Part shown: positions 9,850 through 55,260 of the stretch, in pieces | Layout: each line of letters starts with the position of its first letter | Numbering within the stretch: the stretch's first letter is position 1 | Assembly: GCA_046543095.1 (NCBI GenBank) | Contig: JBKHAC010000002.1 | Coordinates: 2,525 to 66,524 of the forward strand | Length of the DNA stretch: 64,000 nt | Direction of reading: 5' to 3' | From: Candidatus Woesearchaeota archaeon | GTDB taxonomy: Archaea > Nanobdellota > Nanobdellia > Woesearchaeales > 21-14-0-10-32-9 | Translations under genes and position numbers: made by a program | Notes under the pieces: model-generated | Databases searched by the model: none | What the model was told of the DNA's origin: nothing | Seen by the model: the letters and a program-made list of their open reading frames with translations, nothing else

Positions 9850-10440
9850 ATGTTCAAACAAAAAAAAGCAGTTATGGGCGTAGGAATGCTACTAATATTT
9901 GTAGCGAGTATAGTCTCAGCAGCAATAGCTGCAGCACTACTTATAACATCAACAAATTTACTACAAGATAGAGCAGCTAAAGTACAACAAGACGCAACAG
10001 AAGGACTTATTAGTGGACTTGATGTAGTTTCAATATATGCAACAGGAAATATGACAACAGAGATAATATACGAATTTGAATTCATCACAAGGCTTAGAGC
10101 AGGATCAAGACCTGCACAACTAGACTCCTTAGGCCTTACATTTATACAAGGTGAAAACACAGCAACAGGATACATGAACACATCACTTATAGGCGATAAC
10201 TGCACATTTGAAAATCTTCAAGCTGAAACAGAATTTTGCGTGAATAAAATATTCGGCGATGAAAACACAGTACTTGAAAGTGGCGATATGGCAATTATAA
10301 AATACAAATTATCCAACGAATCCGCACTACCAACAGACACTCCCTTCGATATAATATTCCAACTTAGAGTCGGCTCACCTTTAATTATGGCCTTGCAAAC
10401 GCCTGATATGGTACTTAGCAGTAAGATAAGACTTAGATAA
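9850..10440 (+). CDS. flaB: Archaellin (FlaB-family) with a class III signal peptide
   Basis: N-terminus KKAVMG/VGMLLIFVASIVSAAIAAALLI followed by the archaellin-type conserved block LQDRAAKVQQDATEGLISGLDVVSIYATG. Confidence 0.75.
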   Translation: MFKQKKAVMGVGMLLIFVASIVSAAIAAALLITSTNLLQDRAAKVQQDATEGLISGLDVVSIYATGNMTTEIIYEFEFITRLRAGSRPAQLDSLGLTFIQGENTATGYMNTSLIGDNCTFENLQAETEFCVNKIFGDENTVLESGDMAIIKYKLSNESALPTDTPFDIIFQLRVGSPLIMALQTPDMVLSSKIRLR

Positions 10441-10550: not shown

Positions 10551-11786
10551 TTGGGACTACTATCATTTTTAAAGAAAAAACCTAAAGAAGAAAAAAAAGA
10601 AGGGGATAACACGAATCAACTGATTGAAGATAGTTCTAAAACTCAAAATACAACACTCAAACCAGAAGAGACTAATTCTATAAGTGCAAACACGGAAAAT
10701 AATACTCAAAGTACCCAAAGTGTTCAAAATAAAGATGAACAAAATAATCAAAATACTCAAGAAGATGACTCCAACGAAGATTTCGACAAACTCGTCACAC
10801 AAATAATAACAAAACTTGAAGATATGAAAACAGGCGCAGACACAAAACTAGAAGAACTCGAGACAAAAATACAAGAACTAAACAACACAAACAAAAAAGA
10901 AGAACTAGATGCAATAAAAGAAAAAGTTGAGAAACTAGAAAACAGCCTAAAAGAATTCTCATCAATATATGAGGCAATAAGCTCACAATACAACCCACTC
11001 TTAGACGGATTCGACGAGAGAGATAAAAAACAAAACCTAAACAAAGAAGAAAAACAACAAGAAACTGCGCGAAGCATAGATGCGTCAGAAATTCAACAAT
11101 CGCCTGAAATTGAACAGAAAAACGTTACTGAACAAATAAAAGAACAAAATACGGAAATGACACAGAGCCTAAACAAACAAAATGAAGAACAACAAGTTCA
11201 AGAAGCTCAGCAAACCCAACAAGCTCAACAGTCCCAAGAAATAATCACACAAACACAAGAACACACAAAAGAACAAATACAAGAAAAGGTACAAGAAAAG
11301 GCACAAGAACAAATAGAAGAAAAGGTACAAGATAGCACCTCACAAACACAAGAAACAAATTCAGATTATAATTTAAAATACACAATATCAACACAATCAG
11401 ATCTCGACGATGACAATAACACAGAACAAATACTAGTATCAAGACACGAGAATAAAAACCAAAGCGCAGATAGAGAATCAATACTAAAGAAAAAAATAAT
11501 AGAATACATGCTTAAAGAAAAAAGAATACACTTAGAGAGATTATCAAGAACAGTAGACGGCGATAAAAAATTCTTTTTAGATAATAATAAAGCAATAGCA
11601 AATTTAATTGATTTAGTAAATATAATAAAAGACGACGAACAATCATTCACAAAACACGTAACAGAAGAAAAAGATGATTTTGCAAACTGGATAGACCACG
11701 TACTCGGACTTGCAGATATCGCACAAAAACTTCGAGGAATAAAAAACAGAGAAGAATACACGCTAACACTTCTATCTGAAATATGA
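10551..11786 (+). CDS. Gln/Glu-rich coiled-coil protein with a conserved C-terminal DFANWIDHV domain; immediately downstream of an archaellin gene
   Basis: Low-complexity N-terminus with a Q/E coiled coil. The C-terminus shares a ~40-aa domain with the CDS at 6723. Confidence 0.55.
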   Translation: MGLLSFLKKKPKEEKKEGDNTNQLIEDSSKTQNTTLKPEETNSISANTENNTQSTQSVQNKDEQNNQNTQEDDSNEDFDKLVTQIITKLEDMKTGADTKLEELETKIQELNNTNKKEELDAIKEKVEKLENSLKEFSSIYEAISSQYNPLLDGFDERDKKQNLNKEEKQQETARSIDASEIQQSPEIEQKNVTEQIKEQNTEMTQSLNKQNEEQQVQEAQQTQQAQQSQEIITQTQEHTKEQIQEKVQEKAQEQIEEKVQDSTSQTQETNSDYNLKYTISTQSDLDDDNNTEQILVSRHENKNQSADRESILKKKIIEYMLKEKRIHLERLSRTVDGDKKFFLDNNKAIANLIDLVNIIKDDEQSFTKHVTEEKDDFANWIDHVLGLADIAQKLRGIKNREEYTLTLLSEI

Positions 11787-12891: not shown

Positions 12892-14568
12892 CTACCAAAT
12901 CGTACTCATATCAGGAAGAACCATATCAACAACAGAAGGAATAGTCCAATAAAGCAAAGCAATAATCCAAATCATAATAATTAAATTAATGATGGATGAA
13001 TAATTAGACCCACCATCAATAATCTTCAAAATCCACGAAGACGTAAAAGCATGAATTATAAGCATAACCATAATAAGAACAAGAGCCACACCAAAATTAA
13101 TCTCCTGATTCATAGGCATAATAGTCTGCGCAAAATCAACAGTCATCTCATCATCAATATTCGTCGTAGAAAAAAGCTGAGACATCTTCTCAGAAATCCT
13201 AAACGTAATAAAAATAGTTAAAGACACACCAATAGTAATACCATAAAAAACACCAGTGAGACCCTGCGCGAGCTGAGCCCTAAGCTTCCTTAAAGAAAGC
13301 AAATGCTGAACATTATTACTAACAATCTCACCAATCTTTTCAGCATTACCACCAAGATAAATAGACTCAGAGAAAATCTTACTAAAATTATTAACCAAGT
13401 TACTACCAGAATCAACCGCGTAATGATACCAAGACTTAAACTTATCAGTACCAAGCCTCAAACGCCTATAAAGATTAACACTCATATCATTAATAACACC
13501 AAAATCATGCATCTGAGTAGATTTTAAAGACGAAATAACGCCCCCATTACGAACCTCAATAGCAGACCCCAAAATCCTCGCATAAACAGGAAACTGAACA
13601 TCACGCTTACGCACAATCTCTTCCTCACGAACAGCAAGAAACCCAGGATATAAAAGCGGAAGCGAACCTAAAGCCATAACAGTAATAAACGATAAAGAAG
13701 TCAAAAATAATAAACCAACAAAAAAAACACCACTAATAATCACAGCAAATTTAAACGCCTGCTCAATTTTTAACTGACCTAAACTTTTATGCGCCAAATC
13801 ATGAAAAATTTGATCACGAGGAATAAAACCTTTCACTGCAAAAATAATCACAACATCCATAACAACTAAACCAACCAAAGCATAAATGAGCAAAACATTA
13901 ACAGGCAAAGCAATTAACAAAGGCGCAAGCAAAATAGTACTCACAAGAAACGCAAAAGAAACCGAGAGCGCCATAAACAATTCTTGAATCATCTTAATAA
14001 TCTCAAGAGATTTTTTATATTCAACAGAATAATCATCAAGCACAGCACCCTGCTCATCATACAAAAAAGTATCAAGCTCCTCACCAAAATCCATGACAAC
14101 AGCGAACCTATCAAGAAAATCACCAAGAATACGAGAAGGAGTCCTCGAACCCATCAAACGACAAGAATTAACAAAACCCATATTCCAATCTTTAGACAAA
14201 TAAATAACCTTCTCAAACGTCTTACTAATCTCACCAAAAACCTTTTTCTCAGCAATCTTCTTAAATAACGCATGACGAGAAATCTTCATAGTCGCAATAG
14301 TACCTGCATAAGTAATAAAAAAATGCAAATTCTCATTAATATTTTGTTTAACAGCAGAATACTTAATTAAAGGATAACCTATAAGTCCACCCATAGTTAA
14401 TAAAATTAAAAAAATACTAAACACAAAACCAACAGGAACAATAAAAGGAATAATTAAAGAAATTAAAACAACACTACTCAAAATAGGCAAAACTAACTTC
14501 AACAAATAATCATTCAAATTCGAATAACCCACAAGTAAAATTACTTTATCAATTTTTTTAGTATTCAT
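12892..14568 (-). CDS. flaJ: Archaellum assembly membrane protein FlaJ (TadC/GspF-like)
   Basis: Polytopic membrane protein of 558 aa immediately downstream of flaI. Typical FlaJ N-terminal TM pair and cytoplasmic domains. Confidence 0.8.
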   Translation of the reverse strand: MNTKKIDKVILLVGYSNLNDYLLKLVLPILSSVVLISLIIPFIVPVGFVFSIFLILLTMGGLIGYPLIKYSAVKQNINENLHFFITYAGTIATMKISRHALFKKIAEKKVFGEISKTFEKVIYLSKDWNMGFVNSCRLMGSRTPSRILGDFLDRFAVVMDFGEELDTFLYDEQGAVLDDYSVEYKKSLEIIKMIQELFMALSVSFAFLVSTILLAPLLIALPVNVLLIYALVGLVVMDVVIIFAVKGFIPRDQIFHDLAHKSLGQLKIEQAFKFAVIISGVFFVGLLFLTSLSFITVMALGSLPLLYPGFLAVREEEIVRKRDVQFPVYARILGSAIEVRNGGVISSLKSTQMHDFGVINDMSVNLYRRLRLGTDKFKSWYHYAVDSGSNLVNNFSKIFSESIYLGGNAEKIGEIVSNNVQHLLSLRKLRAQLAQGLTGVFYGITIGVSLTIFITFRISEKMSQLFSTTNIDDEMTVDFAQTIMPMNQEINFGVALVLIMVMLIIHAFTSSWILKIIDGGSNYSSIINLIIMIWIIALLYWTIPSVVDMVLPDMSTIW

Positions 14569-14608
14569 AAAAAACCTAACTCTCTAATTTAAAAAACCCA
14601 CCTAAAAT

Positions 14609-16255
14609 TTATAATTTAAACGGCAATGTTGCCTCACCACCATGATAATAATTACGAAGAATAGACCAAACATCATAATAATTAAAAATCTTCTCCTCAA
14701 CCATACGCTTTAAAATCTTAGTACGCTTATCCAATTCAGCATAAATCTCACGAGGATCTTTAAGCCCAAGAGTCTTCGCAATTTTCTGCTCAAGAATATA
14801 ACTATTAAAAAGACCCCTAAAAATTAATTTATCATTAACACTATTCCACGTAAAAACCTCACGCGTAATAACTTTATTTGCAGGAGCATAATAACGCTCA
14901 AGCTCACTTAAAGATAAAACACGACGAACAAATTTATTACCACGATAAACAGCTTGCTGAATCAAACACAAATTCAAGTTATCAATAAAAGCAATAGGAA
15001 CATTAATAGGATCACCCGTCAAACGCTGAATCATAGTATTAACATCACCAGCGTGAAAAGTAGATATAACAGGATGCCCAGTCTGCATCGCCTGAAACGC
15101 AATAGCACCCTCCTCACCACGAATCTCACCCACAATAATATAATTAGGACGACTACGAAGAGCAGCAATAAGCAAATCCAAATAACCAACATCAGACTCC
15201 TTACCAGCCTCACGAGTAACCAAATGCTGCCAAATATCATGAGGCATAGTAACCTCGGGAGTATTCTCAACAGTAAACACCTTCGCAGTAGGCTTAATAA
15301 AAGCAGCACACGCATTAAGCGTAGTCGTTTTACCAGACGCAGTTTCTCCACAAACAAACAAATTCATACCATTTTCAAGCGAGAGCCAAATGTACGCTGC
15401 AAGATCAGCACTAAGAGTATTCCAATTAATAATCTGAGTAATAGAGACAGGAACATCAGAAAACTTACGAATAGTAAAACTAGAACCCTCAAGACTAATC
15501 TCACGACCAAAAATAAAATTCGCACGAGAACCATCAGGCATAATCGCATCAACAACAGGATGACGATCACTAGTTGGACGCTCAACACGCTCAGTAGTAT
15601 CAATAACATACTTATCAAGCTCCTTATCTGACTTAAACTCAATAGTTGTATAAATCATACCAAACACTTTATGAATAGACGTTACAACACCAACACCAGT
15701 ACAATGAATATCCTCCAAATTAGGATCACGCAAAAGAGGCTCAAGCTTACCATAACCAACACGATTCCTAACCAAGAAATATTTAATTTTCTCATATTGC
15801 AAAGACGTAAGCCTAGTTTTAGATGAAATACTAAACAAACCCTTACTCGAACTAGCACCACCAGACTCAGAAACTTCAACAACGTCATCAAGAAGCTTCA
15901 ACAAAACAGGACCAATTTCAGTAACTTTATCAGGCACAGGCTCTTTATACGCAATATCAATTAAACGCTCAACACACTCATCATAAAGCTTCTGCTCATC
16001 ATCAGTTAAAAACGGCTCAATTACGGTATAAATGGTGTCTTCAGCCGGCTTCTTTCTCAAATGAATAAAAATAGGATCACCAACAGGATAAATAAGATTA
16101 GGAAAATCCATCTTACCCATATCACGAGTAAGCGCAGGCACAAAAGTAGGCATATCCTCTTTAGAAAAACCCTCAACATACAACCTAAGATGCTCAAACT
16201 TCTTTTTAGCCTCTTCAAAATCCTTAGTAATTTCAACTTCCTTTTTCATTTTCAA
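14609..16255 (-). CDS. flaI: Archaellum ATPase FlaI (type II/IV secretion ATPase family)
   Basis: Walker A VCGETASGKTTTLNA, Walker B/Asp box and His box. 548 aa. Confidence 0.9.
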   Translation of the reverse strand: MKMKKEVEITKDFEEAKKKFEHLRLYVEGFSKEDMPTFVPALTRDMGKMDFPNLIYPVGDPIFIHLRKKPAEDTIYTVIEPFLTDDEQKLYDECVERLIDIAYKEPVPDKVTEIGPVLLKLLDDVVEVSESGGASSSKGLFSISSKTRLTSLQYEKIKYFLVRNRVGYGKLEPLLRDPNLEDIHCTGVGVVTSIHKVFGMIYTTIEFKSDKELDKYVIDTTERVERPTSDRHPVVDAIMPDGSRANFIFGREISLEGSSFTIRKFSDVPVSITQIINWNTLSADLAAYIWLSLENGMNLFVCGETASGKTTTLNACAAFIKPTAKVFTVENTPEVTMPHDIWQHLVTREAGKESDVGYLDLLIAALRSRPNYIIVGEIRGEEGAIAFQAMQTGHPVISTFHAGDVNTMIQRLTGDPINVPIAFIDNLNLCLIQQAVYRGNKFVRRVLSLSELERYYAPANKVITREVFTWNSVNDKLIFRGLFNSYILEQKIAKTLGLKDPREIYAELDKRTKILKRMVEEKIFNYYDVWSILRNYYHGGEATLPFKL

Positions 16256-16944
16256 CCAGATAAATCCACAACAATACCAATACCCGCGCGAACCTTAAAC
16301 GGCAACTCACGCTCAACATCATTAATCGCACCAAGAAACCGCTTCACCTGCAAAATATTCAAAATATTACCATACTGCTCACGCTCAAACATAACAAGAT
16401 GAACCTCAACAGTATTTTGCAAATATTTCAAAATCTCTCTATTAATAATTTCAGGCTCTACACAAAAAATAACAGTCTTACCCGAACTTGTAAGCTTTTT
16501 AAAAGCACTAATGAACTCAAAAGTCTCACTTAAATTAGACTCATTTTTCAAAACAAAATCATTAAGCGCATCAATAACAATAACCTCAGATTCCAATAAT
16601 TTTTTAGATAAAAAAATCTTCTTAATCATATCAGGCTCAAAATTAACACGACCAAGCAAAGGAAAAGTCGTAATAAATTTTAACTGACCTGCAAGAAACT
16701 CTTTACGAATATCATACTTTAAAGAATCCATTTGAGAGAGAAAACTTTGAACAGAGAGCTCAGAGCTAACATAAGAAATACTAACATTATTTTTAATCGC
16801 GCCATAAACAAAACGCTGAGCCAAAATAGACTTACCAAGACCAGCCGGACCCTCAATTAAAACAAGACTATTCTTAGGAATGCCCCCGCCAAGTTTTAAA
16901 TGAAGCTCATCACCCTCAAGCTCAATACTATAAATTTTATCCAA
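16252..16944 (-). CDS. flaH: Archaellum protein FlaH (RecA/KaiC-like ATPase)
   Basis: Walker A EGPAGLGKSILAQRF. 230 aa. 4-nt overlap with the flaI start. Confidence 0.8.
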   Translation of the reverse strand: MDKIYSIELEGDELHLKLGGGIPKNSLVLIEGPAGLGKSILAQRFVYGAIKNNVSISYVSSELSVQSFLSQMDSLKYDIRKEFLAGQLKFITTFPLLGRVNFEPDMIKKIFLSKKLLESEVIVIDALNDFVLKNESNLSETFEFISAFKKLTSSGKTVIFCVEPEIINREILKYLQNTVEVHLVMFEREQYGNILNILQVKRFLGAINDVERELPFKVRAGIGIVVDLSG

Positions 16945-17852: not shown

Positions 17853-18437
17853 ATGAAAAATTATAATAAAAAAGCAGAAGTAGCTATGGGCACGCTAATC
17901 ATATTTATCGCAATGATACTGATTGCAGCAGTCGCAGCAGCTGTTTTAATTTCATCAATAGGAAGTATTCAATCTAAAGCACTAGAGACTGGGTCTGCAA
18001 CAAGACAAGAAATAGGAACAAATGTAAATGTGGTCGAAATATACGGACCGAAAGATACAAATGAATCAACAATAACAAACATAAGCATGGTTGTACGCCT
18101 CGCAGCAGGATCAGACCCAATTAGACTTAGTGATTTACTTCTAACTATTGGCGCTGAGAATTTCACAAACGAATTCACATATAATTCAACAGACCATAAT
18201 AAAGGAGGAACTGCTGGCGCATCATTTAACGTATCATACCTTCTTGAAGGAAATAACAACCAACCTGATTATCTAGTTAAAGGAGACGTTGCAAGATTCG
18301 ATTTAGAACTTGAATATGCAGTAGGAGAAGATGCGAGTTTAAGATTTACACTTATACCAAAAATAGGAACTCCCGCAATAGTGTTTGCAACAACACCTAA
18401 TGCAATAGCAAATTCAAGAGAAACTATTTTCCCATAA
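17853..18437 (+). CDS. flaB: Archaellin (FlaB-family), tandem copy 1
   Basis: KKAEVAMG/TLIIFIAMILIAAVAAAVLISS class III signal/archaellin N-terminus. Divergent from flaGHIJ. Confidence 0.85.
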   Translation: MKNYNKKAEVAMGTLIIFIAMILIAAVAAAVLISSIGSIQSKALETGSATRQEIGTNVNVVEIYGPKDTNESTITNISMVVRLAAGSDPIRLSDLLLTIGAENFTNEFTYNSTDHNKGGTAGASFNVSYLLEGNNNQPDYLVKGDVARFDLELEYAVGEDASLRFTLIPKIGTPAIVFATTPNAIANSRETIFP

Positions 18438-18653: not shown

Positions 18654-19226
18654 ATGAGAAAAAATAATAAAAAAGGAGAAGTTGCTATGGGCACATTAAT
18701 TATATTCATAGCAATGATACTGATTGCAGCAGTCGCAGCAGCAGTTTTAATATCTTCCATAGGAAGTATTCAATCTAAAGCACTAGAGACTGGGTCTGCA
18801 ACAAGACAAGAAATAGGAACAAACATCAACACAGTAGAAATCTACGGATTTAAAGATGGTGATGATGCTACAATGACTAACTTTAGCATGGTTACAAGAC
18901 TTGCAGCAGGATCAGACCCTGTAAGACTTGGAGATTTATTATTAACAGTTGGAACAGAATCATTTACTGATGAGTATACATACAACTCAACAAATTTGAG
19001 TGCGGGCACCACATTTAATGCATCTTACTTGCTTAAAGGTGCAAACAATCAAAATGGTTATATAGTTAAAGGTGACGTTGTGAGACTTGATTTTATTTTA
19101 AGTGATACAATCGGCGAAGATGCAACAATGAGATTTACAATGATTCCAAAAATTGGAACTCCAGCAGTTGTATTTGCATCAACACCAACAACTATTGCGA
19201 ACTCTAGAGAAACAGTTTTCCCATAA
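18654..19226 (+). CDS. flaB: Archaellin (FlaB-family), tandem copy 2
   Basis: Same N-terminus as 17853. About 110 nt of 5' coding sequence is nearly identical between the two copies. Confidence 0.85.
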   Translation: MRKNNKKGEVAMGTLIIFIAMILIAAVAAAVLISSIGSIQSKALETGSATRQEIGTNINTVEIYGFKDGDDATMTNFSMVTRLAAGSDPVRLGDLLLTVGTESFTDEYTYNSTNLSAGTTFNASYLLKGANNQNGYIVKGDVVRLDFILSDTIGEDATMRFTMIPKIGTPAVVFASTPTTIANSRETVFP

Positions 19227-20568: not shown

Positions 20569-20717
20569 TATTAAATATTTACATTAATAACAATAAAAAT
20601 CAATTTGTCCCAAATAATACAAAAAAATATACGCCGCGCAAAACTACGCAAATCAAATGAAATTCAATGACAGTAATCTAATAAAAATAATTCAATAAAA
20701 ATAATTTGATAAACAGA

Positions 20718-20880
20718 CCTCATAGAAATCCTTTTCGAACCAATAAAATCTTAATGATGCCTCGCTTCGTTTTCATGTTATTTAGATATTTGAATCGAGT
20801 CTCACATACAACGGATGTTTGATCTAGAACTTAAGCAAGATAGCATTATTATTAAAATTTTAATAGAATTTCTATGAGGC
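20718..20880 (+). repeat. Family-4 ~165-bp TIR element
   Basis: Termini CCTCATAGAAATCC ... GAATTTCTATGAGG. Copies at 29905 (-), 37908 and 48043. Confidence 0.8.
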
Positions 20881-20927
20881 TAATAAAAAGTACGTGCATA
20901 GCGCAACGAGCATCTCTTCTTTAGATG

Positions 20928-21000
20928 TATTTAAAACCGAGTCTAGTGTATCACATTTATAAACACGGAGCTCGTTTAGGCGCTAGCTATGCATGCACAA
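20928..21000 (+). repeat. Family-6 element (core related to family 5)
   Basis: AAAACCGAGTCTAGT...AAACACGGAGCTCGTTTAGGCGCTAGCTA, also at 55196..55260. Confidence 0.6.
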
Positions 21001-21124
21001 TAAAAATAAAGATTTATAAATGAAAAACCATTCCTCAAAGTAAAACCGACCTTAAAACAAACTTCGTTTTAAGATAGCCGCGTGAGGTAAAAAAAATTCG
21101 CGGAGCTTCTAATTAAGCTTTGGT

Positions 21125-21724: not shown

Positions 21725-21801
21725 ATACTAAACATTTTTTTTCTTTTTTTCCACTTCTATTTTTTAATATTTCAAGATATGTTAATATCGCCTAAGAAAG
21801 A

Positions 21802-21946
21802 GACTTTGTCCCGAATAGTTGTTTTTTGTATACTGCCGAGCAAACCACTCAAAATAAACATTGATTTTTATAGACTCGAATTTAAACCCTAGTGAACATT
21901 GTTCGGTTTGCGCAGTATACAATTCATTGTTATTCGGGACAAAGCC
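21802..21946 (-). repeat. Family-1 hairpin repeat, inverted orientation
   Basis: Reverse complement aligns to the 31529 copy. Stem GTCCCGAATA/TATTCGGGAC carries compensatory changes. Confidence 0.85.
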
Positions 21947-21970
21947 AAGAAAAAAATTAATTTAAAAAAA

Positions 21971-23652: not shown

Positions 23653-23768
23653 GGTGGACAGCTTTCCGGATCTCCCGCCCTTGAAGGCAGTACGCACCGG
23701 AACGTGCATGTGCTTGACTTCCGTGTTCGAAATGAGAACGGGTATATCCACACGGCTTTGACCGTCCA
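23653..23768 (-). rRNA. rrf: 5S ribosomal RNA
   Basis: Reverse complement reads GGACGGTCAAAGCC...CCGTTCTCATTTCGAACACGGAAGTCAAGC...GTACTGCCTTCAAGGGCGGGAGA...GCTGTCCACC. Helix I termini pair. Matches the universal 5S loop C and helix IV/V consensus. GC-rich island in an AT-rich context. Confidence 0.85.
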
Positions 23769-23982
23769 ATACATAGGAATGCACATCCCTTTATAAAGCT
23801 TTTTCTTAAAAATAATTATCTTCAATAATGAAAATAAATTATTTTTCAGGATTTTTAAAAATTATGAAATAAATGTCTTAAATGTCTTGTTCATAATACT
23901 GCAAATATTCCACATAATTATTATCTCATCATGAACTAAAAAAATAAAAGATTTTTAAAGAAAAGACAAGTAATAAAATAAA

Positions 23983-24661: not shown

Positions 24662-27556
24662 TTAAAATAAAGGCAAAGTGCCTTTAGATTTATAAGGATC
24701 AATCCCAGTTAATGCACGAATATATTTTTGATTAGCTTTCCAAAACGCCGGAGGCCTACTATAAATTTCATCAAGAAATTTATTCTGCATATCTTTATGA
24801 TCCCCCAAATTATCTAAAAAATAATTAAACATACGAAAAATCAAGTCATCATTTTTAGATTTTGGCTCTTTACGATTTAAATAAACATTAAAATTATCAA
24901 TCCTACCAATAAGCCCTCTATCTTTAAAATTAACAGCATCAACCACGCCAAGACCAAAATTCAAACCAGTAAATTCACGAACATAAAGACCTTCAGTTTT
25001 AGCAACTAAACCAACACCCAAATACCTAATATGATCAGCAATAATATTATTAATATCGAGCATAGTATAATCAAAAGGAATCAACCCTCGACGAACAATT
25101 TTTCTGCCGCATTTATATTCTGCGCTAAAAATATAATTAGTCCTAGATAATTCAAAATCAGAAGACCCACCCAGATTATCAGAAAAATAAACATCCTCAA
25201 AAACATCACCCTCAACATTAAAACTTTTAAAAACATCCTCTACCCTGTAACGCTTACCAAATTCTAAGCCTGCCAAATCCATAAAATTTTTAATTTTATC
25301 AATCGCAACATGCAAAAAAGAATGATGCTTTGCAAGCAAATCATACTTCTCAACAAAATTAGAACTTTCAAGCATCCTCTCATGAATTAACTTCATGGAA
25401 TGATTATTTTTAATAATATCAATACCAGCATTAATAATTACGCCCGGAAAAACAAGCTCACCTGAAATAATTCCTTCAGTTTGTTTTTCACGTTTAAACA
25501 AAGAATAAATAATCTCATCAGGACTAAGCCTATCTTCAAGCTTTTCAAGATTATGCCGCAGGCTAAATTCATGCCTGAGCTTATATGTACCAAGACGCAT
25601 AAAATAATCACGAGAACCCATATCATAAAAATTTTTAACAGGATTATTATTAAAAACAGAAGGCAAAGGCTTATTTGATGCAATAGACTCAAGCACAGCA
25701 TTTTTTAAAAATAAATCCTTTACAACTCTACTTTTCACACCATCTTCAATAGTATAATCAATAATTTTCCAAATTAAATCAGGATTGCCTGAATTAACAT
25801 ATTCTTCCATTAAATTATAATCTAAAGATTTAGAAGAATTTGCAAAAGTTGCAAGCTTAAAATCTTTCAAAATAGGAATTCTATTTTCAACATACTTTTT
25901 AGTGTCAAGAATTTTTTTTGAACTTAAAGTCCAAAGATTCTTAGAATTATTTTTCTGTTTATATTGTTTAATTTTATTTTCAACACTATCAGAAATAATT
26001 CCTTGCCTATTTAAAGCAGAATCATTATTAAATTTAATTAAATGCTTTTGATCAAATTCCTCAAAATTATGACCAATTATATATTCATACTTCATAGAAT
26101 CAAAATTAAGCAAACCAATAAGATCAACCTCATCATCTGCAAAAACAAGCTCAACATTAGAATTAGTTAAAGAATTACGTTTTGAAAGATTATCTAAATA
26201 AATTGATTTTACATCATCATTTAACCAAGCATCCTTCGTCATATAAATCTTATTTTCAACCTCACTTTCAAGAACAGCCATAAAAACCCTACCAGATATG
26301 TCTCTTGAAGATTTATCGTAACCTGTAACTTCAATATCAATAACCGCAGAATTTTTTAAATAAAAATTAAAAGCACAATTAACAGCGCCTTCAAGAGACG
26401 ACACAGGCTTTTCACTTACAAAATGAGACAAAGCAGGAACTTTATTATTAATTTGACTTAAAAGAGTTTTCTTAGGATTAAACAACATATGTAACGGAAA
26501 AAAATCCCTGAGCTGACTAGTCGGACTATTCAAATTTAAAGGATCAAAAAGCTCCTCACGCGCACGCCTCAACTTAACATTTTTATCATCGTTTGATTTG
26601 ATTAAATCACCTAATGGTTTTAAACCACGATACTTCGTTTCACCAATTAAAATATCCTCACTTAGACTTTTCATAAAACTAATATTATTATTTGCAGTCA
26701 ATCTAACACAATACTTCACATCAAATTTACTTCTCCGTTTATGAACAACACCAAATTGATCAACATGATTTTTAAAATTACTCACTTCTTTTATTTTATT
26801 AAGATACTCGGATGCAGTTTTCTCAGAATCAAATTCAGGACCCTCATATATATTAATTCTAAACAAAGAAGAATCAAGCTCTTTTAATAAAGACTCCACA
26901 CATTTAACCTCGACAAATTTTCTTTTATAATTAACAGAAATATCGTCTTCAAAAACACCTCTTTCTTTAAGAGACTCAAAAAGATAATCTTTTTTAGAAG
27001 CTAATTCATCAAAATCAGGAATAATTTCAGTTCTCGCTAAAAACCTTTTTTTCGAATTACGAATAAAAATTTGTTTTTTTTTATCTTCATCCAAAAAAAA
27101 TTCTAAATTATGCCTATCTTCTCGATTACCACGATGCCAAATAAGAACAGTTTCACTGCCTTCACGATAAAAAGTACTATCATCATATTCATTTGAGAAC
27201 ACATTTTTACTACCGTACTTTTTTAATTCAAAAGAACCGTCAACGGACTCTCGAATCTTAGATAAAAGCTCACTTGGAGATTTAAAACCATATTTTTTCC
27301 AATCAATCTCAATGCTAGGCGTTATGTGATCCCACACATCCTCTTTTTCAAATAACGAAAAAGTTTCAGAATCATAATATCTAATTATAACTTCATTACC
27401 TTTATTAGCCTTAGGTAAAACTTCCAAAATTCTATATTTGTCCAATTTATCCTCAAGACCAGACTTATTAACTTTAGATAAACTATTTTTGAGTTCTTGA
27501 GCAGTATTATTAATTGAATTTTGCTTTGACATAAAAAAAAGGTAATTAAAAAACAT
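24662..27556 (-). CDS. Large (964 aa) protein with family-B-polymerase-like DEDDy 3'-5' exonuclease motifs. Polymerase motifs are not recognisable.
   Basis: Exo I AVIDIEVTGYD, Exo II YIIGHNFEEFDQKHL (cf. archaeal PolB ITYNGDNFDFAYL), Exo III IIDYTIEDGV (cf. YSMEDAKV), with PolB-like spacing. GKRYRV resembles the KxY motif. No SLYPS or DTD motifs. Confidence 0.4.
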   Translation of the reverse strand: MFFNYLFFMSKQNSINNTAQELKNSLSKVNKSGLEDKLDKYRILEVLPKANKGNEVIIRYYDSETFSLFEKEDVWDHITPSIEIDWKKYGFKSPSELLSKIRESVDGSFELKKYGSKNVFSNEYDDSTFYREGSETVLIWHRGNREDRHNLEFFLDEDKKKQIFIRNSKKRFLARTEIIPDFDELASKKDYLFESLKERGVFEDDISVNYKRKFVEVKCVESLLKELDSSLFRINIYEGPEFDSEKTASEYLNKIKEVSNFKNHVDQFGVVHKRRSKFDVKYCVRLTANNNISFMKSLSEDILIGETKYRGLKPLGDLIKSNDDKNVKLRRAREELFDPLNLNSPTSQLRDFFPLHMLFNPKKTLLSQINNKVPALSHFVSEKPVSSLEGAVNCAFNFYLKNSAVIDIEVTGYDKSSRDISGRVFMAVLESEVENKIYMTKDAWLNDDVKSIYLDNLSKRNSLTNSNVELVFADDEVDLIGLLNFDSMKYEYIIGHNFEEFDQKHLIKFNNDSALNRQGIISDSVENKIKQYKQKNNSKNLWTLSSKKILDTKKYVENRIPILKDFKLATFANSSKSLDYNLMEEYVNSGNPDLIWKIIDYTIEDGVKSRVVKDLFLKNAVLESIASNKPLPSVFNNNPVKNFYDMGSRDYFMRLGTYKLRHEFSLRHNLEKLEDRLSPDEIIYSLFKREKQTEGIISGELVFPGVIINAGIDIIKNNHSMKLIHERMLESSNFVEKYDLLAKHHSFLHVAIDKIKNFMDLAGLEFGKRYRVEDVFKSFNVEGDVFEDVYFSDNLGGSSDFELSRTNYIFSAEYKCGRKIVRRGLIPFDYTMLDINNIIADHIRYLGVGLVAKTEGLYVREFTGLNFGLGVVDAVNFKDRGLIGRIDNFNVYLNRKEPKSKNDDLIFRMFNYFLDNLGDHKDMQNKFLDEIYSRPPAFWKANQKYIRALTGIDPYKSKGTLPLF

Positions 27557-29904: not shown

Positions 29905-30068
29905 GGCCTTATAGGAATCCTATTAAAATTTTAATAATGATGCTATCTTGCCTAAGTCATAGATCAAACATCTGTGGTGTGTGAGACTCGGTTCAAATGT
30001 CTAAATAATATGGAAACGGAGCATAGCATCATTAAGATTTTATTGGTTCGAAAAGGATTTCTATGGCG
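29905..30068 (-). repeat. Family-4 TIR element (inverted copy)
   Basis: Reverse complement matches 37908..38086. Confidence 0.8.
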
Positions 30069-30115
30069 CCAATTCTTAGAAAAGTATAAAAAGAGAACTT
30101 GTTTAAATAAAACTT

Positions 30116-30406: not shown

Positions 30407-31480
30407 TTAATTCTTATTAGTATCAAACGGCTCAAGGAAAGTACTAAGCTGACGATTAACCATAAGAAAAGTAGTCCGTTTACTAAATTCTCTCAAATTC
30501 CTTGCACCAATATAAGTACCAGTACTTCTAAGCGACCCAAGAATTTCATGAACAAAATTAGCAACATCCCCTTTATACGGAACCTCAACAGTCCTGCCCT
30601 CACTTGCACGATGCTCATCAACTTTACCATAATACTTATTCATCGCAGTAGCTGAACTCATACCAAAATGCTCCTTAAACTTCAAACCACTACGCTCAAT
30701 TAAAGCGCCACCGCTCTGATCAAAACCTGCAAACATAGACCCAATCATAACAAAATCAGCACCACCACAAAACGCCTTCGCAATACAAGACGGACTTATA
30801 ATGCCACCATCACTCATAATCCTACCTGAACCATTATTCTTACTAATGCCATGCGCAGCATCCGCGCACTCAATTACAGCACTAAGCTGAGGATAACCAA
30901 CACCAGTCTGCCTCCTCGTTGTACACGCAGAACCACTACCAATACCAATTTTAACAATGTCAGCACCTTCAAGAAGTATTTGTTCAGTTATTTCATTAGT
31001 TACAACGTTACCTGCAATAATTATGTGCTCAGGACAAATACTTCTAAGTTCCTTAACTTTACCAGTGAACCGCTCAAGATACGCATTAGGCACATCAAGA
31101 CAAATAAAACTAAATTTATCAAGAAGACCACGCTCTTTCATAATTTTTAATTTATCAAAATCTTCATCACGAATACCAAGACTATATGCAATATAATCGG
31201 GACTATTATAAGACTTAAAAAAAACCTCGAGTTCATCAGCAGAATAAAATTTATGCAAAGCAGTAATAATTTTATGCTTAGACAATGTTTTCGCCATCTC
31301 AAGCGTACCAGATGTTGCCATATTCGCAGTAATTATAGGAATGCCAGACCATTTTTTTGGTGAGTGCAAGAATGTGAATGTTCGCTCAAGCACAACATCA
31401 CGCCTTGATGTAAGCGTACTACGCTTAGGCCTTATTAATACGTCAGAAAAGTCTAGTTTTACTTCATTATCAATTCTCAT
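30407..31480 (-). CDS. guaC: GMP reductase (IMPDH/GuaC family, TIM barrel)
   Basis: Near-colinear with bacterial GuaC: MRI..E.KL.F.DVLIRPKRSTL.SR.DV.LER.FTF...GIGPGSVCTTR..TGVGYPQLSAVIECADAAHG. No CBS insert, which argues against IMPDH. Confidence 0.8.
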   Translation of the reverse strand: MRIDNEVKLDFSDVLIRPKRSTLTSRRDVVLERTFTFLHSPKKWSGIPIITANMATSGTLEMAKTLSKHKIITALHKFYSADELEVFFKSYNSPDYIAYSLGIRDEDFDKLKIMKERGLLDKFSFICLDVPNAYLERFTGKVKELRSICPEHIIIAGNVVTNEITEQILLEGADIVKIGIGSGSACTTRRQTGVGYPQLSAVIECADAAHGISKNNGSGRIMSDGGIISPSCIAKAFCGGADFVMIGSMFAGFDQSGGALIERSGLKFKEHFGMSSATAMNKYYGKVDEHRASEGRTVEVPYKGDVANFVHEILGSLRSTGTYIGARNLREFSKRTTFLMVNRQLSTFLEPFDTNKN

Positions 31481-31528
31481 ATTGTTTAATTAATTTGTTT
31501 TATTATATTAAACTTTCTCCTAAAATAT

Positions 31529-31673
31529 GGCTCTGTCCCAAATAACAATGAAGTGTATACTGCGCAAACCGAACAATGTTCACTAGATTTTAAATCCGAG
31601 TCCATAAAAACCAATGTTTATTTTGAGTGGTTTGCTCGGCAGTATACAAAAAACAACTATTTGGGACAAAGCC
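31529..31673 (+). repeat. Family-1 hairpin repeat (reference copy)
   Basis: 145 bp with imperfect long inverted arms and an internal palindrome GAACAATGTTC. Confidence 0.85.
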
Positions 31674-31782
31674 TAAAATATACAAAACGTAACTATCGCA
31701 TAATAGAAACTTTTAAATAAACGTTCAAATTAACAAGTTTAATTAAAGCAATTAAACAAAAATGAAGCTTTAAAGATTAAAA

Positions 31783-32241
31783 ATGAACTATCCTAATCTA
31801 AATTACATCGTTGAAGCATTATCTAACACATATTCTGTGTCACAAATAGGACAAATTTTTTCAGAATCACTTACAAGACGCAAATTAGACTCGATTGCTT
31901 ATTTTAACAGAGAAAATGTACAAAATAATGTAAAAGTAAAAAAAGTACAAGGAAAAGTAATATCAAATCTAAAAGCAGAACTAATAGTCGCAACATTTAA
32001 GCCATACACTTTTTCGAACACAGATTTCAGAGTACTAAAATTCCCAAATGAAAACTCCTTACTTGGATGCGTGAAAACAGCAATAGATCTAAAAGGAGAA
32101 GATGCATTTGAGGATATAGGTCAAGCAGTACTTAAAGGATCTGAGATATACTTAATGAAAGAACCACTTGCAAAATATATGAATTCATTCCAATTCAAAG
32201 AATACACGTCAATACAAGCAGAGCTACAAAAAATACATTGA
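31783..32241 (+). CDS. Hypothetical protein
   Basis: ORF, with coding-strand A-richness consistent with genuine genes here. Confidence 0.35.
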   Translation: MNYPNLNYIVEALSNTYSVSQIGQIFSESLTRRKLDSIAYFNRENVQNNVKVKKVQGKVISNLKAELIVATFKPYTFSNTDFRVLKFPNENSLLGCVKTAIDLKGEDAFEDIGQAVLKGSEIYLMKEPLAKYMNSFQFKEYTSIQAELQKIH

Positions 32242-32251: not shown

Positions 32252-33769
32252 ATGAGGTATCAATATAAAATAGCAGATACTAATATTTTTTTAATAGATC
32301 CTATAGTCGCACTATATGGTTTTGGCCCAAAAGATCAAGACACAGTTAATCACTTAATAATACCATCAAAAGTATTAAACGAGATGGACAAATTTAAAAC
32401 AGAACAGTACACTGAGCGAGGTTACAATTCAAGAGTATTTTCAAGAGAATTAAAAAAAATAACACGCGAAAAAGGAGCCTTAAGCGAACCGGTAAAACTA
32501 AGAGACAATTATTTTCTACAAGTATCTTTTGAATCAACACCCGTACCATTTACAAAGGACGAACTAATAAATGATGATTACATAATAGGCACAGCAAAAT
32601 ATTATGCAGAAAATCACTCAAATGAGAATGTTGAATTAATTACGAATGACGATTTGGTATACATTAAAGCAAGCTCTCTTGGAATTAATGTTTCTGATTG
32701 GATAGGTGCTCGAGCAGTATCAAGTATTGAAGAAAGTTATAAAGGATGGAGAACAGTTCGTGCGCCAAAGCACATATATAACAACTTAAAAGATGGCGCG
32801 TTAGATATAACAAACACGAAAATTGAAGGATTAGAAGACATTATGCCAAACGAATATATTTTATTTGTAGATGAAAATTTGCCTGAAAGTTACGAAGTAC
32901 CTATATTTAACAGCAAAAATGAAAACTCGACAGATTTCGCATTAGCAAGATACGTATCAAACATTAAAAGTTTTGAGAATGGATGTATTGTTCACGTGAA
33001 TCCAAGAAGCGCAAATAATTCATCGGTTTTATCTATAAAATCAAGAAACTACGAACAAGCATTCGCACTTGACGCACTACTAAACCCGAATATAAAACTA
33101 GTCAATCTCATAGGAATGGCAGGAACAGGAAAGACGCTACTTTCACTTGCTGCAGGAATAAACATGCTAAATATGGAAGATGAATCTAAATCAAAACAAT
33201 ATGATAGAGTGATTGCAACAAGAATGATGATATCTTCAGGAGGCCAAGAACTCGGAGCACTACCAGGGGATATAGGTGACAAAATGGATCCTTACATGGA
33301 ACCAATATATGATAATTTAAAACCAGAAATGTTTAAAAAATTCATTGATAAGAATGGAAACGCAGAACCTAGAAAAACTAAAGTTTTGCTCGAACAAAAA
33401 AAAGAAGAAATAAATGAGATATATAAGATGAATGCATTTAAAACCCATTTATTAAATAATGACAAATTAGTAATACAACCACTACAAGCAATGAGAGGCA
33501 GAAGCATAGACGGGGCTTTTTTTATAGTGACAGAAGGACAAAACCTATCGCCTTCAGAAATAAAAACAATTATTACACGAGCAGGAGAAAACACAAAAAT
33601 TGTTGTTGAAGGAGACCCAGACCAAATAGATAAAAAAGGACTAACAGATGTAATAAACGGGCTAATGCATGCATCAGAAAAATTTAAAGAACAAGAAATC
33701 TCAGCTACAGTGAAATTATTTCAAGGAGAACGAAGCGAACTTGCAACACTTGGCGGAAAACTATTATGA
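32252..33769 (+). CDS. PhoH2-type protein: N-terminal PIN domain fused to a PhoH-like ATPase
   Basis: PIN-like N-terminus (acidic residues in IADTNIFLIDP). Walker A LIGMAGTGKTLLSLAAG. Walker B FFIVTEGQNL. Confidence 0.7.
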   Translation: MRYQYKIADTNIFLIDPIVALYGFGPKDQDTVNHLIIPSKVLNEMDKFKTEQYTERGYNSRVFSRELKKITREKGALSEPVKLRDNYFLQVSFESTPVPFTKDELINDDYIIGTAKYYAENHSNENVELITNDDLVYIKASSLGINVSDWIGARAVSSIEESYKGWRTVRAPKHIYNNLKDGALDITNTKIEGLEDIMPNEYILFVDENLPESYEVPIFNSKNENSTDFALARYVSNIKSFENGCIVHVNPRSANNSSVLSIKSRNYEQAFALDALLNPNIKLVNLIGMAGTGKTLLSLAAGINMLNMEDESKSKQYDRVIATRMMISSGGQELGALPGDIGDKMDPYMEPIYDNLKPEMFKKFIDKNGNAEPRKTKVLLEQKKEEINEIYKMNAFKTHLLNNDKLVIQPLQAMRGRSIDGAFFIVTEGQNLSPSEIKTIITRAGENTKIVVEGDPDQIDKKGLTDVINGLMHASEKFKEQEISATVKLFQGERSELATLGGKLL

Positions 33770-37907: not shown

Positions 37908-38086
37908 GTCTCATAGAAATAAGGCCTCATAGAAATCCTTCTCGAACCAATAAAATCTTAATGATGCTATGCTCCGTTTCCATATTATTTAGACATTTGA
38001 ACCGAGCCCTACACACCACAGATGTTTGATCTGAGACTTAGGCAAGATAGCATCATTATTAAAATTTTAATAGGATTTCTATAAGA
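37908..38086 (+). repeat. Family-4 TIR element, with a duplicated left terminus
   Basis: GGTCTCATAGAAATAAGGCCTCATAGAAATCC ... GGATTTCTATAAG. Confidence 0.8.
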
Positions 38087-38132
38087 TCATCAAAAACCAA
38101 AATTTAAATACTAAAAAAACTTTTTAAAAAAA

Positions 38133-39034: not shown

Positions 39035-39180
39035 AAAATATTAAAAATTTTATGAAACTAAAACATATTTAAATTAACACAAAATAGCGCACCTCACAAA
39101 ACAAGATACTTCAAAAATACATTGAGCACTGAGACTAATGGCTCTAAAGTTCAAAGGAACAAATATATTTGTATAACTTA

Positions 39181-39370
39181 AATTACGAGCGGAAGAAATC
39201 CTCAATTTTTTTGCGCGGGGCAAAAAAATGTTACCTTTAGGCTTCAGATTTTTTCTCTCTCTAATTTGCCAAAGTTAAAGCGGAAGAAATCCTTGATTTT
39301 TAGCGTTAGCTAAAAAGTTAACCGAAGGTTAACCCTTTAGGGCGGGGAAGTGCCCTCCAACTTTTTCAAT
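39181..39370 (+). repeat. Family-3 repeat, long form (duplicated head module plus a TTTTTTTGCgcgggGCAAAAAAA hairpin)
   Basis: Aligns with 42906..43097 and with 6298..6396 over its 3' 100 nt. Confidence 0.8.
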
Positions 39371-39488
39371 TAAGCAGTATTAATTTTACACAGCACTAAA
39401 ATATTATAACACAAATTAAAAAAAATTTTATTTCTAGAGCCTCTAATATTAGCAAAATATAAATATGCGGCCATCTTCCTAAACAATT

Positions 39489-41371: not shown

Positions 41372-41392
41372 CTATTTTTTAGGTTATATAAA

Positions 41393-41480
41393 GTATATTC
41401 ACGGTAACGCGTTCATATAATACAGAAAAATCAAACTACTATTTGAAAATTTAATCAAACTTGTTTGATTTCTCTGGTTA
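41393..41480 (+). repeat. Family-7 element with the AATCAAACTTGTTTGATT palindrome, 3' of the gene ending at 41371
   Basis: GTATATTCACGGTAACGCGTTCATATAA...CTATTTGAAAATTTAATCAAACTTGTTTGATTTCTCTGG. Confidence 0.7.
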
Positions 41481-42488: not shown

Positions 42489-42632
42489 TTACAAATTGAG
42501 TTTAATACCTCGCTGCTTCGCAGTGACTTCAGACTCGATTTGTAATGACAGAAAATCCGCCAGCTAAAATTCGCGTCAGTACTACGCAGCTCTGCTGCGC
42601 GAGATAGCGAATTTTAGGATTTTCGTTTTATT
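42489..42632 (+). ncRNA. Family-2 structured element, copy B, ending directly at the SD of the gene at 42642
   Basis: Same stems as 3901..4044. Outer stem TTACAAATTGAGT/ACTCGATTTGTAA has a T-G wobble. Confidence 0.45.
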
Positions 42633-42887: not shown

Positions 42888-42905
42888 TTTTTTCTTTTTT
42901 TCTTT

Positions 42906-43097
42906 AAATTACGAGCGGAAGAAATCCTCAATTTTTTTGCGTCAAGGAAAAAAATGTTGCCTTTAGGCTTCAGATGTTTTCCCTCACTAATTTGCTAAAG
43001 TTAGAGCGGAAGAATCCTCGCTTTTTAGCGTTAGCTAAAAAGTTAACCGAAGGTTAACCCTTTAGGGGGGGGAAGTGCCCTCTAACTCTTTCAATTT
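42906..43097 (+). repeat. Family-3 repeat, long form; a partial extra copy at 43141..43215
   Basis: Aligns to 39181..39370. Confidence 0.8.
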
Positions 43098-48042: not shown

Positions 48043-48208
48043 GGACTCATAGAAATCCTTTTCGAACCAATAAAATCTTAATGATGCTATGCTCCGTTTC
48101 CATATTATTTAGACATTTGAACCGAGCCCTACACACCACAGATGTTTGATATATGACTTAGGCAAGATAGCATCATTATTAAAATTTCAATAGAATTTCT
48201 ATAAGGCC
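48043..48208 (+). repeat. Family-4 TIR element
   Basis: GGACTCATAGAAATCC ... GAATTTCTATAAGGCC. Confidence 0.8.
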
Positions 48209-49980: not shown

Positions 49981-50194
49981 AAGAATAAATAAACAAAAAA
50001 AAACAAATTTAAAACTTACTCAAAAAAAACCGAAAAAACCACGAACAAAATTAAAAATATGACTTTTAAAAATTATAATTGTTTTATAATATCTTCACAT
50101 CATAAAATCTTTTTATGATACAACCGAGTCTTAAATATGATACTTAGGTGCCAGCTACACATGCACAAAAATCAGGTCTTGCCTAGAATGGTGC

Positions 50195-50320
50195 AAATAT
50201 GTATGCTGCACAAATTAATAAAGCCAGAATTGTTTATTAAAACGAGGTTATTGAAACCAATATTTGAGTTCAGTGGTTTGCCAAACAGTATACAAAATAC
50301 AGACATTCTAAATAAGCACA
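50195..50320 (+). repeat. Degenerate family-1 repeat copy in the leader region upstream of rpl1
   Basis: GAAACCAATATTTGAGTTCAGTGGTTTGCCAAACAGTATACAAAATACAGAC aligns to AAACCAATGTTTATTTTGAGTGGTTTGCTCGGCAGTATACAAAAAACAAC. Confidence 0.55.
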
Positions 50321-50403
50321 AAAATCAATAAGATTTATAAATCAAAACCTATTCCTAGTGAACTAGACCCGCAAGTAACTACTTGATGTAGGAGGGAAAA
50401 AGC

Positions 50404-54167: not shown

Positions 54168-54294
54168 GGACAAAATTTTTTGGTAATACCACGAACTTCG
54201 AGCATTATTTGGTTCGTGGTGCCGAGTCTATTTAATTCGTGTTTAAATCCATATTGCTCGTTTAGGTATTACCAACTTTTTATATCCTTTACTA
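54168..54294 (+). repeat. Family-5 TIR element
   Basis: GGTAATACCACGAACTTCGAG ... CTCGTTTAGGTATTACC. Copies at 55265, 57523 (head) and 58228 (tail). Confidence 0.75.
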
Positions 54295-54969: not shown

Positions 54970-55036
54970 AACTACAAGGATAAAAAAACAATTTTTCTAA
55001 CAATACCTGCATAGCGTAGACGAGCAAAGAGTTTTA

Positions 55037-55180
55037 TTACAAATTGGGTTTAATACCCCGCTGCTTCGCAGTGACTTCAGACTCGATTTGTAATGACAGA
55101 AAATCCGCCAGCGAAAATTCGCGTCAGTACTCCGCAGCTCTGCTGCGCGAGATAGCGAATTTTAGGATTTTCGTTTTATT
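55037..55180 (+). ncRNA. Family-2 structured element, copy C
   Basis: Outer stem TTACAAATTGGGT/ACTCGATTTGTAA (two G-T wobbles). Inner stems conserved. Confidence 0.45.
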
Positions 55181-55195
55181 TCGTTTTTAAAACCG

Positions 55196-55260
55196 AGTCT
55201 AGTTAAAACGTGTTTGTAAACACAGGGCTCTTTTAAGCGCTAGCTACTCTCTACTTTTTA
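55196..55260 (+). repeat. Family-6 element
   Basis: Matches 20928..21000. Confidence 0.6.

Follow-up and report, generated by a model that had tools for sequence, protein, structure and literature searches.

We found that the 145-bp repeat named Family-1, which occurs in several copies in a Candidatus Woesearchaeota genome, is best explained as a non-coding MITE (non-autonomous DNA transposon) that generates an 8-bp target-site duplication (TSD) on insertion and is mobilized in trans by a transposase of the DDE type. We estimate the probability of this joint model at about 80%. The assignment as a MITE is based on the 8-bp TSDs, the 16-bp TIRs, the lack of coding capacity, the intergenic sites that are occupied in both orientations, and the assembly breaks at the copies. 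Family-1 alone is an ordinary MITE that was previously undescribed, and MITEs are already a known category in this archaeal group. Judging from the sequence comparisons given below, Family-1 belongs to a lineage-specific superfamily, as one branch beside two other repeat families (GT and D6), with which it shares an inner core of ~90 nt. The family D2 probably belongs to this superfamily as well. In the following, the window refers to the entire stretch of DNA analyzed, which is 64 kb in length and AT-rich (~31% G+C).

Host Genome and Gene Content

The genes in the window are archaeal and include those for RadB/Rad51, a Hef-type helicase-nuclease, and archaellins with FlaI/FlaJ-type partners, together with ribosomal proteins S2, L1, and L10, GINS, and a lone 5S rRNA gene (23653-23769, minus strand; 59 bits). 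No 23S rRNA, 16S rRNA, or tRNA genes were detected in the 64 kb. The PhoH/PIN protein encoded at 32252-33769 is identical to a protein of the Candidatus Woesearchaeota MAG GCA_964462285.1, and the next-nearest homologs have identities of 64 and 49%. The repeat elements are absent in the relatives that have these two homologs, whose divergence is too great for an empty site to be recognized. Exact-protein look-ups of the flanking genes led only to the host genome itself and a single Logan run, neither of which provided an empty site.

Several other features were observed in the window. An archaellum/pilus cluster contains an archaellin gene (9850-10440), a FlaC-like gene (10551-11786), T2SS-F/E-type and KaiC-like genes (12892-16944), and two tandem archaellin paralogs (17853-18437 and 18654-19226) that are ~81% identical over 300 nt (repeat D4). 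An ORF of 964 aa (24662-27556, minus strand), which adjoins the 5S rRNA gene and a family-2 glycosyltransferase gene, matches no Pfam family, and no identical product has been recorded. The gene at 53274-54140 (minus strand) has a strong match to UMPH-1 (pyrimidine 5'-nucleotidase family; 5e-68). The UMPH-1 family is mainly eukaryotic, and this gene may represent a transferred gene in a DPANN genome.

Copies of Family-1

With the focal copy (31529-31673) as the query, BLASTN against the window identified matches at 394-538 (99.3%), 63460-63603 (97.2%), and 21804-21946 on the minus strand (93.7%), as well as two diverged matches at 3622-3718 (76.5%) and 50254-50301 (79%). These correspond to six copies of 143-145 bp each (Table 1), which can be divided into a main subfamily, subfamily 1b (the 3596 copy and the copy at 4754 of contig L056), and subfamily 1c (the 50175 copy). 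The search recovered the copies listed in the original prediction, with a correction for the one that had been placed at 50195-50320 and labeled as decayed. That copy spans 50175-50319, its 5' TIR having been clipped, and is a full-length element of 145 bp with both TIRs and a perfect TSD.

Outside the window, two more copies were found on a different contig of the host genome (L056) and one on an unrelated metagenome contig (L043), the latter with a perfect TIR and a perfect TSD (AAGACTTA). In the host genome, the density is 8 copies in ~91 kb, and four of these have at least 97% identity to the focal copy. The 17-mer TGTATACTGCGCAAACC occurs five times, compared to an expectation of 0.08, and the 16-mer of the TIR, which is present at both ends of each copy, occurs eight times, compared to 0.34. 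All copies are intergenic; their neighbor genes are arranged in tandem, divergently, or convergently, and both orientations of the element occur. For example, the 21802 copy separates the convergent S2 ribosomal protein and RadB genes, the 63459 copy starts 10 nt past a peptidase U32 gene, and the 50175 copy adjoins a half GT-family element at the latter's right end.

A metagenome scan returned 26 matches, of which 25 were an unrelated bacterial gene or chance matches and one was a true copy (L043). When 185,579 reference genomes were scanned for a core pattern, only single chance matches in bacteria were returned, and nothing related to Family-1 was found in viral contigs (three scans) or in plasmids and phages (BLASTN). 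The repeat also fragments assemblies of the host genome. In GCA_964462285.1, the 31529 copy marks the junction of two contigs (CAYWYM010000012.1 and CAYWYM010000010.1), one ending and the other beginning there. The Logan contigs of SRR11308339 likewise run no further than the initial 30-38 nt of copies (~31480-31530 and ~63450-63500).

Table 1. Positions of Family-1 copies, their component features, and other repeat families. Positions refer to the window unless a contig is given.
Feature	Position	Strand	Details
Focal Family-1 copy, main subfamily	31529-31673	+	145 bp; 173 bits
Focal copy, left TSD	31521-31528		TAAAATAT; 8/8 match with 31674-31681
Focal copy, right TSD	31674-31681		TAAAATAT
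Focal copy, left TIR (outer stem, 5' arm)	31529-31544	+	GGCTCTGTCCCAAATA; 16 bp
Focal copy, right TIR (outer stem, 3' arm)	31658-31673	+	TATTTGGGACAAAGCC
Focal copy, inner inverted repeat, 5' arm (stems A and B)	31554-31570	+	TGTATACTGC+GCAAACC
Focal copy, inner inverted repeat, 3' arm	31629-31648	+	GGTTTGC-TCG-GCAGTATACA
Focal copy, 3-nt bulge	31636-31638		T-N-G; within the inner 3' arm
Focal copy, apical motif	31596-31603	+	CCGAGTCC; element center; also in other repeat families
Focal copy, divergent neighbor genes	30407-31480; 31783-32241	-; +	IMPDH/GMP-reductase-like; ORF
Family-1, main subfamily	394-538	+	99.3%; TSD CTTTCTTC at 386-393 and 539-546
Family-1, subfamily 1b	3596-3738	+	143 bp; ~76% to focal copy; TSD TTATTTTA at 3588-3595 and 3739-3746
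Family-1, main subfamily	21802-21946	-	93.7%; TSD AAGAAAGA/AAGAAAAA (7/8) at 21794-21801 and 21947-21954
Family-1, subfamily 1c	50175-50319	+	Degenerate yet full length; TSD AAAAATCA at 50167-50174 and 50320-50327
Family-1, main subfamily	63459-63603	+	97.2%; TSD GATAAATC/GATAAATT at 63451-63458 and 63604-63611
Family-1, other contig of the same genome	L056:10016-10160; L056:4754-4897		Perfect TSDs CATTTAAT and TAAAATAA
NCBI gene calls on the Family-1 frame	L055:2903-3121 (= window 376-594); L056:10001-10255		
D2	20716-20881; 29905-30070 (-); 37923-38088; 48043-48208; L056:7816-7980		166 bp; ends GGCCTCATAGAAATCC
GT	20890-20998	+	Family 88-110 bp, palindromic, ends GTACGTGCATAGC; this copy 109 bp, TSD AATAAAAA on both sides
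GT, other copies	55009-55254 (interrupted); ~50100-50166 (right half only); L043:378-500; L056:3955-4042		
D6	54168-54287; 55266-55385 (+); ~57523-57650		120 bp, palindromic; GGACAAAAGTTTTTGATAATGCC...
D5	3903-4035; 42491-42624; 55039-55172		134 bp, relatively GC-rich, two hairpins; copies 95-97% identical
D8/D12	39178-39372; 42904-43097; 6296-6397		~195 bp with internal duplication
D10/D14	7877-8028; 41375-41479; 62033-62140; L056:2220-2295		~105 bp; contain TATATTCGCRGTAGCGC

Target-Site Duplications and Proposed Mobility

An 8-bp direct duplication of AT-rich target DNA flanks all nine Family-1 copies (six in the window, two elsewhere in the same genome, and one on the metagenome contig), and the duplicated 8-mer differs at each site. 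The two flanks match at 8/8 positions in seven of the nine copies and at 7/8 in the other two. As a control, an 8/8 match at the same spacing was found at 28 of 63,820 window positions. The 16-bp TIRs directly abut the duplicated 8-mer. These duplications had gone unnoticed in the original prediction, which had also allowed for the repeat being the end of a larger IS. The latter is excluded because both ends of every 145-bp unit abut a duplicated 8-mer. At 143-145 bp, the elements are well below ~500 bp and contain no transposase gene, and they are scattered in multiple copies, the recent ones being 97-99% identical.

In the mechanism that we propose, a Family-1 unit consisting of 16-bp TIRs, a subterminal inverted repeat with a 3-nt bulge, and no gene would be moved in trans by a transposase encoded elsewhere, presumably of the DDE type. 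This enzyme would cut the target with an 8-bp stagger, such that each insertion would duplicate 8 bp of AT-rich intergenic DNA. The ends may be read either in duplex form, as inverted repeats, or after extrusion of a hairpin or cruciform.

Coding Capacity and Candidate Partner Transposases

A 48-codon frame is open across the whole element in the main subfamily. Six-frame translation found no conserved ORF in Family-1, and the L043, 1b, and 1c copies no longer have this frame intact. A coding function was dropped from consideration because the frame is lost in these diverged copies. A protein search with the frame returned only two small gene calls, neither of which has a family. The NCBI annotation includes proteins of 72 and 84 aa over Family-1 copies (P0121 and P0122), which are likely spurious genes created by the MITE. 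Against Rfam 15, there was no match for the locus at the gathering score or at E ≤ 10, nor for the repeats in the whole window at E ≤ 1, and the sole match was the 5S rRNA.

No partner transposase was found in the Pfam searches of 40 window ORFs or among the precomputed Pfam hits in the contigs L055, L056, and L062. Similarly, neither such an enzyme nor a full-length IS with Family-1 termini turned up in the window, in a further ~27 kb of the host genome, or in the collections of viruses, plasmids, and phages. IS families that combine 8-bp duplications with GG termini include ISL3, IS1595 (the ISPna2 group, with the ends GGCnnTG), IS6, IS256, and ISH6, and these are the candidate partner families for Family-1. 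The Family-1 terminus GGCTCTG fits the IS1595/ISPna2 end GGCnnTG, which we take to be the ISfinder consensus. No transposases of these candidate families were found near the elements. We also take Nanobdellota to be the phylum that holds Woesearchaeales. All 27 annotated IS families have been reported in Nanobdellota (PMC13343696), and an 8-bp target duplication has been documented for the ISL3 member ISAeme19 (PMC12554700) and for IS6 (PMC7986276).

Hairpin Folding and Paired Substitutions

Consistent with the original prediction, all copies in the window fold as one long hairpin. For the focal copy, the folding energy of this hairpin is -49.6 kcal/mol on one strand (z = -6.7) and -56.0 kcal/mol on the other (z = -7.2), and none of the 200 shuffled sequences folded equally well. 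The 5' arm of the inner inverted repeat (TGTATACTGC+GCAAACC) is near-invariant across all Family-1 subfamilies. The terminal stem changes on both arms between copies as had been described, from CCCAAATA/TATTTGGG to CCCGAATA/TATTCGGG in the 21802 copy and to CCAGAATA/(T)ATTCTGG in the 3596 copy. In the alignment of nine copies (A3), 91.9% of the stem cells are paired, compared to 29-46% with slid partners. There are eight two-sided pair changes, seven of which are located in the 16-bp terminal stem, and they mostly mark off the subfamilies main, 1b, and 1c from each other. The proposed covariation was also recovered in this alignment, with a score of 0.163 that compares to 0.109 in shuffles and was reached by none of the 500 shuffles, these statistics being derived from nine copies that represent a few lineages only.

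Within the main subfamily, 12 of the 19 substitutions are in paired columns (66 of the 145 columns are paired), and nine of these 12 break pairs. All five changes in the 63459 copy are located in stems. One-sided transitions that lead to G·T numbered nine on the plus strand and 16 on the minus strand in Family-1, and six on each strand across families. Because pair-breaking changes prevail in this young subfamily, we conclude that resident Family-1 copies decay neutrally and that pairing is not kept at individual loci. The paired changes had originally been read as indicating selection on base pairing, which is justified in part only: the two-sided changes in the terminal stem separate subfamilies, and most of the recent changes in stems break pairs. 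The lack of pairing upkeep at individual loci, the lack of a G·T strand bias, and the lack of Rfam matches together suggest that arm symmetry is upheld at the DNA level in the transposing lineage. The paired arm changes may have originated from selection on this lineage, in which both ends would have to fit one machinery. The overall pattern fits DNA-level inverted repeats in a mobile lineage rather than an RNA gene that is functional at each locus.

Other Repeat Families and a Shared Inner Core

The window contains other repeat families (Table 1), among which D2, GT, D6, and D5 are intergenic palindromes. D2 elements have 8-bp TSDs, of which TAAGAATT (29905-30070 copy) and AATCAAAG are perfect, and CCGAGYCY at the center. 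The D2 copy at 37923 has an extra partial left end (GGTCTCATAGAAATAA) ahead of the true end. GT elements follow the pattern GTACGTGCATAGCGC...GCGCTAGCTATGCATGCAC with a central ACCGAGTCTAGT and have 8-bp duplications, and their core is homologous to those of Family-1 and D6. D6 has the core common to other families and shares the 12-mer CATATTATTTAG with D2, and no clear TSD was found at its assigned boundaries. D5 is flanked every time by one 8-mer, GTTTTATT (7/8 at one copy), has no Rfam match, and may represent either a MITE with site specificity or a gene for a small RNA. In the D8/D12 and D10/D14 sets, several copies sit directly upstream of genes.

The motif CCGAGTC is the sole 7-mer common to Family-1, D2, GT, and D6, whereas any shared 7-mer was observed in 15 of 5,000 shuffles, and it is located at most ~4 nt from the element center in all four families. 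The degenerate form YCGAGYCY occurs 19 times in the window, compared to 2.7 expected, and in several families a TATA-like TTTAAA is found directly 5' of the apical motif. Two readings were rejected by eye, namely a likeness to the tRNA T-loop or B-box and a bulge-helix-bulge splicing motif, because there is a single bulge and no matching helix. A covariance model of Family-1 weakly detects GT, D2, and D6 copies at full length and in the same orientation. A model that was built from GT and D6 cores only, and that contains no Family-1 sequence, found the Family-1 copies over the full 91 positions (E = 8e-8 to 8e-4), also in the same orientation.

In the core alignment (A7), the order is ATA-NN-GC, a 7-bp helix, an apical region of ~59 nt in which CCGAGTCTA and GTTT have fixed positions, the return strand of the helix, the T-N-G bulge, and GC-NN-TAT. 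The helices vary in sequence and retain their geometry: the middle of stem A is AT/AT, GC/GC, or CT/AG, and stem B is CACGAGC/GCTCTTT, AACGAGC/GCTCGTT, or GCAAACC/GGTTTGC. Of the 13 pairs in the core stems, 10 change on both sides, and 83% of the cells pair, compared to 65% when shuffled and 31-40% when slid, in an alignment that includes three lineages only and was fitted to the model. The initial intuition of selection on pairing gains support at this level, where the inner stems show covariation from family to family while the bulge and the apical motif stay invariant. Based on these alignments, the shared core may be described as a 6-bp stem, the T-N-G bulge, a 7-bp stem, and the apical CCGAGTC, with stems that covary and termini that differ. 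The interior of these elements is conserved across families and the termini beside the duplications are not. MITEs usually show the opposite pattern, and this point counts against the MITE model.

Where elements of different families adjoin, they are flanked by identical 8-mers. Contig L043 has three occurrences of AAGACTTA, which enclose first a GT element and then a Family-1 copy. In the window, the order at 20708-21006 is GATAAACA, D2, AATAAAAA, GT, and AATAAAAA (GT with its flanks at 20882-21006), and the order at 50167-50327 is a half GT element followed by AAAAATCA, Family-1c, and AAAAATCA. Also, one D5 copy (55039-55172) is nested in a GT element (55009-55254). Because neighboring elements of different families re-use an identical 8-bp target, these families were probably integrated by the same machinery. 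This arrangement suggests that one common enzyme type serves all families and that new insertions are directed to the edges of resident elements. A further step would be that the conserved and selected part is the folded core of ~90 nt (with CCGAGTCTA) rather than the termini, and that the transposition machinery or a host factor reads the hairpin or cruciform together with the apical motif. We regard this structure-reading model as unlikely.

Origin of the Core and Alternative Explanations

These families may instead be independent internal-deletion derivatives of several related IS, in which case the core would correspond to the IS ends plus the promoter or leader of the transposase and no structure would be read. 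This possibility is a variant of the MITE model rather than an alternative to it, and removes the need for structure reading. Internal deletion is a standard origin of MITEs (PMC10969869, a review), which counts in its favor. Such derivation would account for the equal TSD length despite different termini and for the asymmetric central block with its TATA-like sequence, and the absence of strand bias fits duplex recognition. However, every parent IS would need inverted repeats of ~45-60 bp with the same 3-nt offset, every deletion would need to end at the same place such that CCGAGTC is central in four families, and no parent IS was seen. We consider deletion derivatives a genuine possibility, albeit one that is more likely wrong than right.

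The elements are very unlikely to be structured non-coding RNA genes, possibly mobile, in which the hairpin, bulge, and apical CCGAGUC loop form a functional RNA with selected pairing. Such genes would be in line with the stability of the long hairpin (z of about -7), the covariation of stems between families around invariant unpaired nucleotides, and the TTTAAA 5' of the apical motif in several families. However, variable 8-bp duplications at every copy indicate DNA transposition, the copies have no fixed orientation and occupy gene contexts of every type, and both strands fold equally well. In addition, resident copies gain pair-breaking substitutions with no depletion of changes in stems, the G·U-compatible changes have no strand preference, and there is no Rfam match even at E ≤ 1. 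The original prediction had left the choice between MITEs and structured RNAs open, and the 8-bp TSDs favor the former, while neutral decay and the lack of G·T bias leave a family of structured-RNA genes unsupported.

Even less credible are single-stranded DNA hairpin elements moved by a tyrosine (HUH/Y1) or integron-type enzyme (REP/RAYT, IS200/IS605 derivatives, or attC), for which one may cite the conservation of structural features (stem geometry, 3-nt bulge, and loop motif) over variable stem sequences and the status of IS200/IS605 as the most widespread IS family in archaea (PMC13343696), but none of these systems duplicates its target, whereas a fixed 8-bp duplication abutted by TIRs is present at each copy here, the 145-bp length far exceeds that of REP hairpins (20-40 bp), and the copies are dispersed among housekeeping genes with no cassette arrays. 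REP/RAYT and IS200/IS605-derived palindromes, as short or subterminal hairpins, also lack TIRs. Both the RNA and the single-stranded DNA explanations are disfavored by the duplications and the absence of strand bias, and we retain the MITE model with mobilization in trans.

Comparison with Known Systems

High MITE density is a feature shared with a censused DPANN genome, namely, a 'Woesearchaea' genome with 105 MITEs per Mb (PMC11602168). Family-1 resembles prokaryotic and archaeal MITEs, the latter including SM1-SM4 of Sulfolobus solfataricus (Redder et al., 2001, as cited in PMC10969869), in its small size, TIRs, TSD, lack of a transposase gene, many intergenic copies, and folding into a long hairpin. 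Unlike known MITEs, the Family-1 sequence matched nothing in the collections searched, and the termini differ between families while the inner folded core is conserved. SM1-SM4 are reportedly tied to known Sulfolobus IS elements, and no parent IS was found here.

The Correia elements (NEMIS) of Neisseria are similar in being ~100-155 bp, near-palindromic throughout, intergenic, and present in many copies with a conserved central site. These elements are bacterial and have a TA duplication, and archaea do not have IHF. The central functional site of Correia elements is an IHF-binding site (PMC10969869). Unlike in these elements, the central motif here is CCGAGTC.

CIR repeats are said to be long intergenic inverted-repeat elements tied to a GANTC site. 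The central GAGTC of the elements found here fits GANTC and in this respect resembles the CIR repeats of Caulobacter crescentus (Chen and Shapiro, 2003, cited in PMC10969869). Unlike in CIR repeats, the conserved block extends beyond GANTC, the window as a whole has no excess of GANTC sites, and no CcrM-like methyltransferase was seen. A role of the central motif in methylation or restriction was rejected, given that GANTC is neither depleted nor enriched (175 sites in the window, compared to ~183 expected from composition).

Family-1 also resembles the RPE of Rickettsia and MJRE1-3 of Methanocaldococcus jannaschii, which are palindromes of ~100-150 bp in a small AT-rich genome, and the ORF of the main subfamily spans the whole element as in RPE. 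RPE are in-frame insertions in protein-coding genes. Unlike RPE, all copies here are intergenic, and the open frame is lost in diverged copies. Identification of the 145-mer as a Rickettsia RPE, for which low GC content and palindromic structure were considered, was rejected based on the archaeal gene content (RadB, Hef, archaellins, and the lone 5S) and on the Candidatus Woesearchaeota label that NCBI gives to the source.

Implications

Family-1 is of practical use for annotation, given the spurious 72-aa and 84-aa calls, and for assembly, given the contig breaks. If the core is indeed read by the transposition machinery, this lineage would offer a natural means of testing whether a transposase recognizes ends by structure or by sequence, and the core would provide a marker motif toward finding the enzyme. 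If structure reading is true, one enzyme would serve families with unrelated ends and steer insertions to the edges of resident elements. To our knowledge, structure-guided transposition that makes 8-bp duplications is undescribed in archaea. DPANN archaea have very small genomes; despite this, there are ~20 copies of at least five mobile hairpin families in 64 kb, and these families occupy the promoter and terminator regions of housekeeping genes.
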